From the sequence record SRR31156797_5459: a DNA stretch of 51,172 bases; one strand, given 5' to 3'. The notes under the pieces are model-generated. The model made no database searches. It was given only the letters and a program-made list of their open reading frames with translations, and was not told the DNA's origin. Each line of letters begins with the position of its first letter. Position 1 is the stretch's first letter. Made by a program: the position numbers and the translations under genes. This document shows positions 1,311-2,499 of the stretch, piece after piece.

Positions 1311-1346
1311 GGGTAGCGGTTTAATCCGTCAGACTGTTTCTCTGAC
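1311..1346 (+). promoter_or_regulatory. tRNA-like (D-arm plus anticodon-arm) RNA structure in the tgt leader
   Basis: GGGT(1311-14) pairs with ATCC(1324-27) around loop AGCGGTTTA. G1328 follows, then TCAGA(1329-33) pairs with TCTGA(1341-45) around the 7-nt loop CTGTTTC. The SD GGAGG is at 1351-55. Confidence 0.6.
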
Positions 1347-1359
1347 ATTTGGAGGTTTT

Positions 1360-2499
1360 GTGAAATTACAATTCGATCTACATAAGAAAGATGGCAACGC
1401 TCGTCGTGGTCACTTAACGTTTGAACGTGGCACCGTACAAACACCCGCATTCATGCCGGTTGGTACTTACGGTACGGTTAAAGGTATGACACCAGAAGAA
1501 GTGGCAGATACTGGCGCACAAATTCTTCTCGGTAACACTTTCCACCTATGGTTACGTCCTGGTCAGGAAGTGATGAAAATGCACGGTGACCTGCATGACT
1601 TTATGAACTGGCAAGGTCCTATCCTGACTGATTCAGGCGGTTTCCAAGTGTTCAGCCTGGGTGATATTCGTAAAATCACTGAAGAAGGGGTGCATTTCCG
1701 TAACCCGGTAAACGGTGACAAGATTTTCATGGATGCTGAAAAATCGATGGAAATCCAAAAAGACCTGGGTTCAGACATCGTTATGATCTTCGATGAGTGT
1801 ACACCATACCCAGCGACTCACGCAGAAGCGAAGAAGTCGATGGAGATGTCACTGCGTTGGGCACAACGTTCTCGCGATCACTTTAACAAGCTTGATAACG
1901 AAAACTCGCTGTTTGGTATCGTTCAAGGTAGCGTATACGAAGACTTGCGTGATGTGTCAGTGAAAGGTCTGACTGAAATTGGTTTTGACGGTTACGCTGT
2001 TGGCGGTTTGGCCGTGGGTGAACCTAAAGAAGATATGCACCGTATGCTTGAGCATACTTGTCCGCAGTTGCCAGAAGACAAACCTCGTTACTTAATGGGT
2101 GTTGGCAAACCGGAAGATTTAGTAGAAGGTGTTCGTCGCGGTATCGACATGTTTGATTGTGTAATGCCAACACGTAATGCTCGTAATGGTCACCTGTTTG
2201 TCACGGGTGGCATTATTAAGATTCGTAACGCAGTACATAAAACGGATACATCACCATTAGATCCGCAATGTGATTGTTACACTTGTAAAAATTACTCGAA
2301 ATCGTATCTTCATCATTTAGATCGTTGTAATGAAATTTTAGGTGCTCGCCTGAATACTATTCATAACTTACGTTACTACCAGCGCTTGATGGAAAGTATC
2401 CGTAATGCGATTGACGAAGATCGTTTTGACCAGTTTGTAGAAGAGTTCTACGCACGACGTAATCGTGAAGTACCACCTCTGCAAAAAGATAAGGCTTAA
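1360..2499 (+). CDS. tgt: tRNA-guanine(34) transglycosylase Tgt
   Basis: GTG start after SD GGAGG; motifs [37 protein letters not shown] and the Zn site CDCYTC...H. Confidence 0.98.

Follow-up and report, generated by a model that had tools for sequence, protein, structure and literature searches.

We found that the tgt gene, which encodes tRNA guanosine(34) transglycosylase (TGT), is preceded by a strongly conserved sense-strand RNA hairpin in a DNA stretch of 51,172 nucleotides (nt) from record SRR31156797_5459 (one strand, 5' to 3'; here called the window, whose coordinates are used throughout). The hairpin occupies positions 1328-1346 of the + strand, where the minimum free energy (MFE) fold, a covariance model and covariation all place it. 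Its stem of 6 base pairs (bp), 1328-1333 with 1341-1346, closes the 7-nt loop CTGTTTC (1334-1340), which corresponds to tRNA positions 32-38, so that T1335, G1336 and T1337 stand for U33, G34 and U35. The Shine-Dalgarno (SD) sequence of tgt, GGAGG (1351-1355), follows 4 nt 3' of the hairpin and is unpaired in the MFE fold. A first-pass annotation of this DNA had proposed a two-arm tRNA mimic upstream of tgt, composed of a D-arm and an anticodon arm, through which TGT would control its own translation. Our analyses show that the anticodon arm is conserved and covaries, and that the D-arm is a chance resemblance restricted to the window and its nearest relatives; autoregulation by TGT is plausible, and we infer rather than compute that TGT binds the leader, that it exchanges a base there, and how far and in which direction translation responds.

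The letters on which the annotation was built are all in place: GGGT at 1311-1314, the putative D-loop AGCGGTTTA at 1315-1323, ATCC at 1324-1327, G at 1328, TCAGA at 1329-1333, CTGTTTC at 1334-1340, TCTGA at 1341-1345, GGAGG at 1351-1355 and the GTG start codon at 1360-1362. The anticodon stem, which it had drawn with 5 bp, is present but is really 6 bp long, with G1328 pairing with C1346, and extends up to 8-9 bp elsewhere. Folded alone, the window hairpin has a free energy of -6.9 kcal/mol (z -2.1), and that of E. coli -6.0 kcal/mol.

Comparison of leaders, with attention to covariation and to the invariance of the UGU loop, had been suggested as a check. In an alignment of 128 leaders, whose rows had to match a pattern with T-G-T and most of the pairs, 96.2% of the cells of the 6-bp helix are paired, compared with 79.9% in shuffles. 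Changes on both sides were found for all six stem pairs (160 cells), and the covariation score was 0.654 against 0.309 for shuffled sequences; none of 500 shuffles reached 0.654, and slid registers gave 0.152 at most. A first alignment with 39 leaders behaved in the same way, and RNAalifold recovered the identical helix de novo. Two observations point to RNA of the sense strand: G.U pairs occur in 60 cells and would be A.C mismatches on the opposite strand, and a covariance model built on the first alignment gave the window hairpin 34.8 bits on the + strand versus 11.4 bits on the - strand. A search for intrinsic terminators found no terminator-like site in 1000-1700, and no U tract follows the stem, the bases 3' of it being ATTTGGAGG in the window and GTAGTGGAG in E. 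coli.

The length of the loop is 7 nt in 128/128 aligned leaders and its positions 33-35 are invariantly T-G-T in these rows, which had been selected for T-G-T. We also sampled evenly the GTDB order to which Vibrio belongs (the order sample). In its leaders, which were selected for NTGTNNN only, C stands at position 32 in 71 and T in 2, and G never occurs at position 38. Position 36, by comparison, is T in 115, A in 5, G in 4 and C in 3 of 127 distinct leaders, and these bases give the anticodons GUU, GUA, GUG and GUC, those of the four tRNA families that TGT modifies. In the genome of the nearest relative (G394), the anticodon arms of the tRNAs for Asp, His, Asn and Tyr have C/U32, U33, G34, U35 and a non-G38 in common with the leader, and the window stem and the tRNA-Tyr arm share four pairs (CAGA with TCTG). 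To our knowledge TGT is the only protein that recognises U33-G34-U35 within a 7-nt loop and leaves position 36 free. At the level of sequence, the pattern of the leaders (33-35 fixed, 36 free, a 7-nt loop, a covarying stem) matches the published identity set of bacterial TGT, and it gives comparative support to the proposal that a U33-G34-U35 mimic beside the tgt SD is an operator recognised by TGT. In the available part of their article, Hurt et al. (2007; PMC1950534) state that an anticodon minihelix suffices as a substrate of TGT and that the enzyme also recognises a U-G-U minihelix embedded in a longer RNA, for example the virF mRNA; in their kinetic table, tRNA-Tyr and its minihelix have Km values of 0.16-0.26 uM and kcat values of 40-70 x 10^-4 s^-1. 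Further non-tRNA substrates of TGT are listed in excerpts of another article, together with preQ1-labelled non-tRNA species of unknown identity in E. coli (PMC8136771).

The element belongs to tgt and not to queA, the usual upstream neighbour, because the hairpin stays beside tgt when queA is distant. In H. parainfluenzae, Gilliamella, Lonepinella and Acinetobacter loci where queA ends 589-1760 nt upstream, the hairpin is still 2-17 nt from tgt. The spacing is also narrow: from the stem end to an SD-like motif the median is 4 nt (10th-90th percentile 0-6; 123 leaders), and to the putative tgt start it is 13 nt (10th-90th percentile 10-16). When whole genomes were searched with the covariance model, the top match was the tgt hairpin in V. 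sonorensis (35.6 bits), E. coli (31 bits), Leclercia (27.8 bits) and Lonepinella (27.5 bits), with runners-up of no more than 21.8 bits in those four genomes; the best match in an Alteromonas genome lacking the element was 19.9 bits.

The model score alone is not specific, and the evidence is position and not score. We located tgt in 80 named genome loci and one E. coli chromosome and read the upstream DNA. Of the resulting 81 named loci, 40 have a hairpin with a CTGT-N-T-N loop just 5' of the ribosome-binding site of tgt, in families that include the Vibrionaceae, Enterobacteriaceae and Pasteurellaceae. The genera are Vibrio, Grimontia, Photobacterium, Aeromonas, Leclercia, Pantoea, Raoultella, Kluyvera, Buttiauxella, Pseudocitrobacter, Serratia, Enterobacillus, Escherichia, Haemophilus, Testudinibacter, Lonepinella, Actinobacillus, Gilliamella, Colwellia, Thalassotalea, Pseudoalteromonas, Arsukibacterium, Rheinheimera and Acinetobacter. 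Samsonia has a version with the loop region one base shorter and Aestuariibacter, by eye, a larger-loop variant. The E. coli element has an 8-bp stem and the loop CTGTTTT and ends 3 nt before GGAG; its G34-equivalent base is position 580 of locus L081, and RefSeq has no annotated feature between queA and tgt of this organism.

Wider sampling, in which tgt was located by its protein because the model score lacked specificity, gave the hairpin in 30 of 30 Vibrio loci, in 75 of the 118 loci of the order sample (73 by a strict rule and two with 4-bp stems; besides these, one locus is degenerate and another has a truncated region) and in 30 of 30 Acinetobacter loci. Pooled, 175 of 259 tgt loci carry it, as 127 distinct 27-mers. 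It was found in 0 of 49 loci from other members of the Acinetobacter order (Pseudomonadales) and in 0 of 23 from more distant Pseudomonadota, whose TGT is 50-64% identical. In taxa lacking the element, any hairpin with an NTGTNNN loop and at least five of six pairs was seen just twice in the 130-150 nt upstream of tgt, at L275 among the 43 order-sample loci without the element and at L339 among the 49 Pseudomonadales, with none in the 23 distant loci. The anticodon-like hairpin is thus present far beyond chance.

Some features of these samples are recorded here in their own right. A locus from a 2.4-Mb genome (L223) has a decayed copy with the loop CTGCTTT and the 3' arm lost, and it is the only ortholog seen with an altered U-G-U. 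Very small genomes of the order sample (L278 and L282-L286; 0.2-0.3 Mb, presumably endosymbionts) keep tgt and are without the hairpin. Among the 81 named loci, the hairpin-less taxa mostly have at most 40 nt between the end of queA and the start of tgt, or an overlap of the two, and the spacers that bear a hairpin measure 52-305 nt or more. This closeness suggests translational coupling of tgt to queA in the taxa without a hairpin, and the element may have arisen when tgt translation became uncoupled from queA.

From these results we propose that TGT binds the hairpin in its own leader, probably with base exchange, and blocks ribosome entry, in the manner of the thrS operator, which we regard as moderately probable. 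The leader hairpin would mimic the anticodon arm of the four queuosine tRNAs, and TGT would read the loop as it reads a tRNA anticodon minihelix. The end of the hairpin is about 4 nt upstream of the SD and about 13 nt upstream of the start codon, so that the 30S subunit would be kept off the SD by a TGT dimer bound there or by a slow covalent TGT-RNA intermediate. With free TGT in excess, translation of tgt would fall; unmodified G34 (GUN) tRNAs would titrate TGT and compete with the leader, so that repression would be relieved and tgt translation would rise. In the predicted fold the SD is unpaired and is not sequestered by the hairpin itself, and control would therefore need a trans-acting factor. 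Bacterial mRNA lifetimes are on the scale of minutes. Since TGT turnover, judged from its kcat, takes a similar time, TGT linked covalently to the leader could persist for the whole life of the mRNA.

The proposal can be carried one step further, to TGT performing base exchange on the leader, where G1336 would be the base exchanged. In E. coli and its relatives, tgt would thereby have a messenger that naturally carries queuosine or preQ1. The long-lived covalent intermediate, or an abasic lesion if there is no base to insert, would act as a sensor coupling TGT synthesis to the supply of preQ1 and to the amount of GUN tRNAs still unmodified. We consider this extension possible, and on the whole rather doubtful.

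Two other forms of local control were considered and rejected. In the window TCTCT (1339-1343) could pair with GGAGG and sequester the SD, but by eye this is not conserved in E. coli or Haemophilus. A CsrA site was discarded as well, since a GGA at the top of the stem is absent in Vibrio, which has CAGA there.

Several observations weigh against a TGT operator. Position 37 is T in 73/73 order-sample leaders and in 126/127 distinct leaders, whereas in the nearest relative the four substrate tRNAs all have A37, and a TGT model does not predict an invariant U37. With base exchange on the leader, U37 would be an adaptation of an operator that is also a substrate, for example as a looser loop for tighter capture or as a means of keeping A37-modifying enzymes away. 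In eight Acinetobacter loci an insert of about 35 nt separates the hairpin from the SD, and this weakens simple steric occlusion there. The element is absent from 43 of the 118 order-sample loci and from all of the 49 other Pseudomonadales and 23 distant Pseudomonadota loci, and since so many tgt-bearing bacteria are without it, the hairpin must be dispensable for TGT function. The information in the hairpin is also low: a class-wide covariance-model survey with strict filters recovered only G001 and 13 chance matches of 22.8-28.1 bits, located away from tgt in 12 other genomes. Finally, the rows of the alignment were picked by pattern, and consequently this selection accounts in part for the percentage of paired cells and the invariance of positions 33-35; it inflates neither the compensatory changes nor the positional conservation.

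The Acinetobacter inserts, identified by eye in L293, L294, L295, L298, L299, L301, L308 and L309, each contain an inverted repeat of their own, and six of these loci are among the distinct rows used for spacing.

A related explanation takes the modification state itself as the signal. TGT would put preQ1 at the G34-equivalent position, QueA and QueG might finish it to queuosine (Q), and a modified or abasic leader would alter translation or mRNA stability, so that tgt expression would report the preQ1 supply. The specificity fingerprint expected is equal to that of a repressing TGT, and queA, the usual upstream neighbour, encodes the product that acts next on the same loop. Published work is also in line with it as far as the accessible portions of the sources go: TGT modifies the virF mRNA hairpin in vitro (PMC1950534), preQ1 labels the non-tRNA species of E. 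coli mentioned above (PMC8136771), and a review cites a report of TGT creating abasic sites in the anticodon loops of its substrates (PMC12503941). However, our literature search yielded no modified base mapped in any tgt mRNA, and the hairpin persists where queA is far away. We consider it unlikely that modification is the switch.

A quite different idea is that of a TGT-independent element for processing or stability, for instance as an RNase E site in the loop or as a 5' stem protecting a processed tgt-yajC-secDF transcript. The consensus of RNase E is RN|WUU. The loop G-U|U-U-N resembles it, with the invariant U37 as the +2 U, and U37 together with a position 36 that is mostly U or A fits this preference better than tRNA mimicry does. 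Loop positions 34-38 fit the motif in E. coli (CTGTTTT) and partly elsewhere; the G or C at position 36 in 7/127 leaders does not fit. The location would also suit a processing element, as the hairpin sits at the queA/tgt border in most taxa and comes after promoter-like boxes in Pseudoalteromonas, Arsukibacterium and Acinetobacter, where it would be near a 5' end. Nevertheless, such an element leaves unexplained the invariant U33 and U35, the strict 7-nt loop, C/U32, the non-G38 and the occurrence of G and C at position 36 in several lineages. RNase E, moreover, normally prefers unstructured AU-rich segments over 7-nt hairpin loops, and a terminator-like U tract is absent. Taken together, we find a role of this kind quite improbable.

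We give a similarly low probability to another loop-binding factor whose target would resemble the TGT set by coincidence. Candidates are QueA, a small RNA (sRNA) complementary to the loop, ribosomal protein S1 or the 30S subunit at a U-rich enhancer, or an anticodon reader such as asparaginyl-tRNA synthetase (AsnRS). A U-rich loop lies directly 5' of the SD, and GUU, the anticodon of Asn, is found in 115/127 distinct leaders. However, AsnRS reads all three anticodon bases, and the variation at positions 36 and 38 argues against both AsnRS and sRNA pairing. A simple U-rich enhancer for S1 would not be expected to have an invariant G34, QueA requires that position 34 already be preQ1 and hence prior action of TGT, and there was no second copy of the element in the genomes searched that would define a regulon.

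On this last point, the secondary covariance-model matches (L083, L087-L091 and an E. coli antisense match inside yajI) were judged to be chance, none of them containing a tRNA gene, and queuosine genes were absent from the neighbours of L089, L090 and the yajI match, the three whose neighbours were read. We therefore judge that there is no regulon beyond tgt. Beside the chance match in L090, from Alteromonas sp. A079, an open reading frame (ORF) of 170 amino acids (506-1018 of that locus, - strand) contains five tandem Lys/Gly/Cys-rich units (GKCGEGKCGGDKKAKE).

The remaining possibility is the complete two-arm mimic, in which the D-arm (1311-1327) and the anticodon arm would be recognised together as a fragment of the tRNA L-shape. 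The letters do permit a GGGT/ATCC stem with a 9-nt loop containing GG. They recur only in L105, a nearest relative whose TGT is 98% identical, with a related stem in L106. Folding predicts the D-arm in neither of two contexts: within the 109-nt intergenic region GGGTAGC (1311-1317) pairs with 1292-1301 in a 10-bp hairpin, and the 36-nt stretch that the first-pass annotation had read as tRNA positions 10-43 forms a third structure when folded alone. A 4-bp D-like stem in register occurs in 8/128 orthologous leaders, compared with 9.6% of shuffled upstream sequences, and one with GG in the loop in 4/128, compared with 2.6% of shuffles. In a blastn search of 285 Vibrio genomes with window positions 1180-1480, similarity mostly begins at query 141-149, equivalent to window 1320-1328 and thus to the 5' edge of the hairpin rather than to 1311; only the closest genome (94% identity) extends it upstream, to window 1286. 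ARAGORN found no tRNA gene in the window, in agreement with the earlier opinion that this is not one. Rfam at gathering score gave no tRNA, tRNA-like or preQ1 riboswitch match in the whole window, and with E up to 10 it gave a single 14.8-bit noise match in 1100-1600. The Rfam search that had been recommended for the hairpin itself likewise returned no matching family; Rfam 15 has no such family. The positions 10-43 anatomy therefore does not stand, the D-arm half is by these sequence comparisons a chance resemblance, and a two-arm mimic, missed by both ARAGORN and Rfam, is almost certainly wrong.

The TGT operator that we favour has a close counterpart in the thrS gene of E. coli. There the leader of a tRNA-binding enzyme, threonyl-tRNA synthetase (ThrRS), forms a hairpin that copies the anticodon arm with its identity nucleotides and adjoins the ribosome-binding site, within a four-domain operator at which tRNA competes. 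Similar competition between tRNA and operator is proposed for the tgt leader. The two systems differ in that TGT is a base-exchanging tRNA-modifying enzyme and not a synthetase, and in that the tgt leader has a single hairpin and no four-domain operator. The putative tgt operator also has the sequence features of a catalytic substrate, and may consequently be attacked covalently and modified. The thrS precedent is mentioned in the available part of a review (PMC8394870).

Comparable relations hold for the known minimal substrates of TGT. Minihelices, the virF hairpin and the RNA-TAG hairpins resemble the tgt leader in that a short stem with a 7-nt U-G-U loop suffices for E. coli TGT even inside an mRNA, as described in the accessible text of PMC1950534 and PMC9561289. 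However, virF is a single in-vitro example without evolutionary conservation and RNA-TAG an artificial tag, whereas the tgt hairpin is natural and covaries across gammaproteobacterial families, lies at the ribosome-binding site of the enzyme's own gene, and has U37 where tRNA-derived substrates have A37. The preQ1 riboswitches of classes I-III are likewise leader elements of queuosine-pathway genes situated at the SD, but the tgt hairpin has no pseudoknot aptamer and no Rfam match, and its proposed ligand is the enzyme and not the metabolite. In the leaders of ribosomal-protein genes and of the RNase genes rne, rnc and pnp, an RNA-binding protein recognises a mimic of its target in its own mRNA and exerts feedback, as we propose for TGT; the mimic at tgt differs in being a tRNA anticodon loop. 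It is plausible, then, that the leader holds a substrate-mimic translational operator of a base-exchanging tRNA-modification enzyme, which would be a new variation on a known principle.

Our literature search found no prior description of the tgt-leader hairpin or of TGT autoregulation, although an old remark in early sequence or specificity papers is possible. A 2025 eLife study of tgt regulation in V. cholerae (PMC11703503) deals with transcript levels, and in the portion of the article available the terms "UTR" and "queA" do not occur. If the proposal is true, no autoregulatory operator of a tRNA-modification enzyme would have been described before this one, bacteria would have a second clear case of anticodon-arm mimicry after thrS, and a repressor would for the first time act chemically on its own operator. 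Nature would thus offer a counterpart to the engineered RNA-TAG hairpins, and the long-standing question of non-tRNA TGT substrates, such as the virF mRNA and the preQ1-labelled RNAs whose identity is unknown, would become directly testable in E. coli K-12. A post-transcriptional layer would also be added to the dynamic tgt expression and Q levels described in the accessible part of the V. cholerae study (PMC11703503). Whatever the mechanism, an unannotated covarying RNA element is present in E. coli, Vibrio, Haemophilus and Acinetobacter.

The hairpin lies within an operon. According to the ORF table, the + strand at the start of the window carries queA, tgt, yajC and secD in this order. The upstream gene queA (211..1266, +) matches the equivalog TIGR00113 with 519.6 bits, and tgt (1360..2499, +) matches the equivalog TIGR00430 with 617.6 bits. 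TGT chains in the PDB match the window protein at E 9e-219, and the closest named TGT is that of Vibrio sonorensis, with 93% identity, which identifies the window as Vibrio DNA. The GTG start of tgt is consistent with homology: alignments with Vibrio TGTs begin at residue 1, and the start annotated in E. coli falls at the same place.

Upstream of the conserved element, between the queA stop and the tgt hairpin, positions 1292-1317 form a stable 10-bp hairpin (-12.5 kcal/mol, z -3.1). Many other Vibrio loci have a G+C-rich hairpin at the equivalent place with a conserved box, GCGACCGCTC, before it, and the window is without this box. The 1292-1317 hairpin is perhaps a terminator-like or repeat element distal to queA. 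The queA stop is overlapped, at 1244-1272, by a promoter-like site (TTAGCA, 17 nt, TATTAT; 9/12 matches); it is the one site found in the region, compared with a shuffle mean of 1.1, and so represents no excess over chance. In Acinetobacter, most of the loci L288-L317 contain a conserved box, AATCAAGGAAAATAG, about 25-45 nt upstream of the tgt hairpin, and this box may be a promoter. The nearest-relative genome G394 also contains, on contig C5 (170463-171760; L159, L164), a tandem array of at least nine tRNA-Arg(ACG) genes with a spacing of 153 nt, preceded by a tRNA-Ser(GCT) gene.

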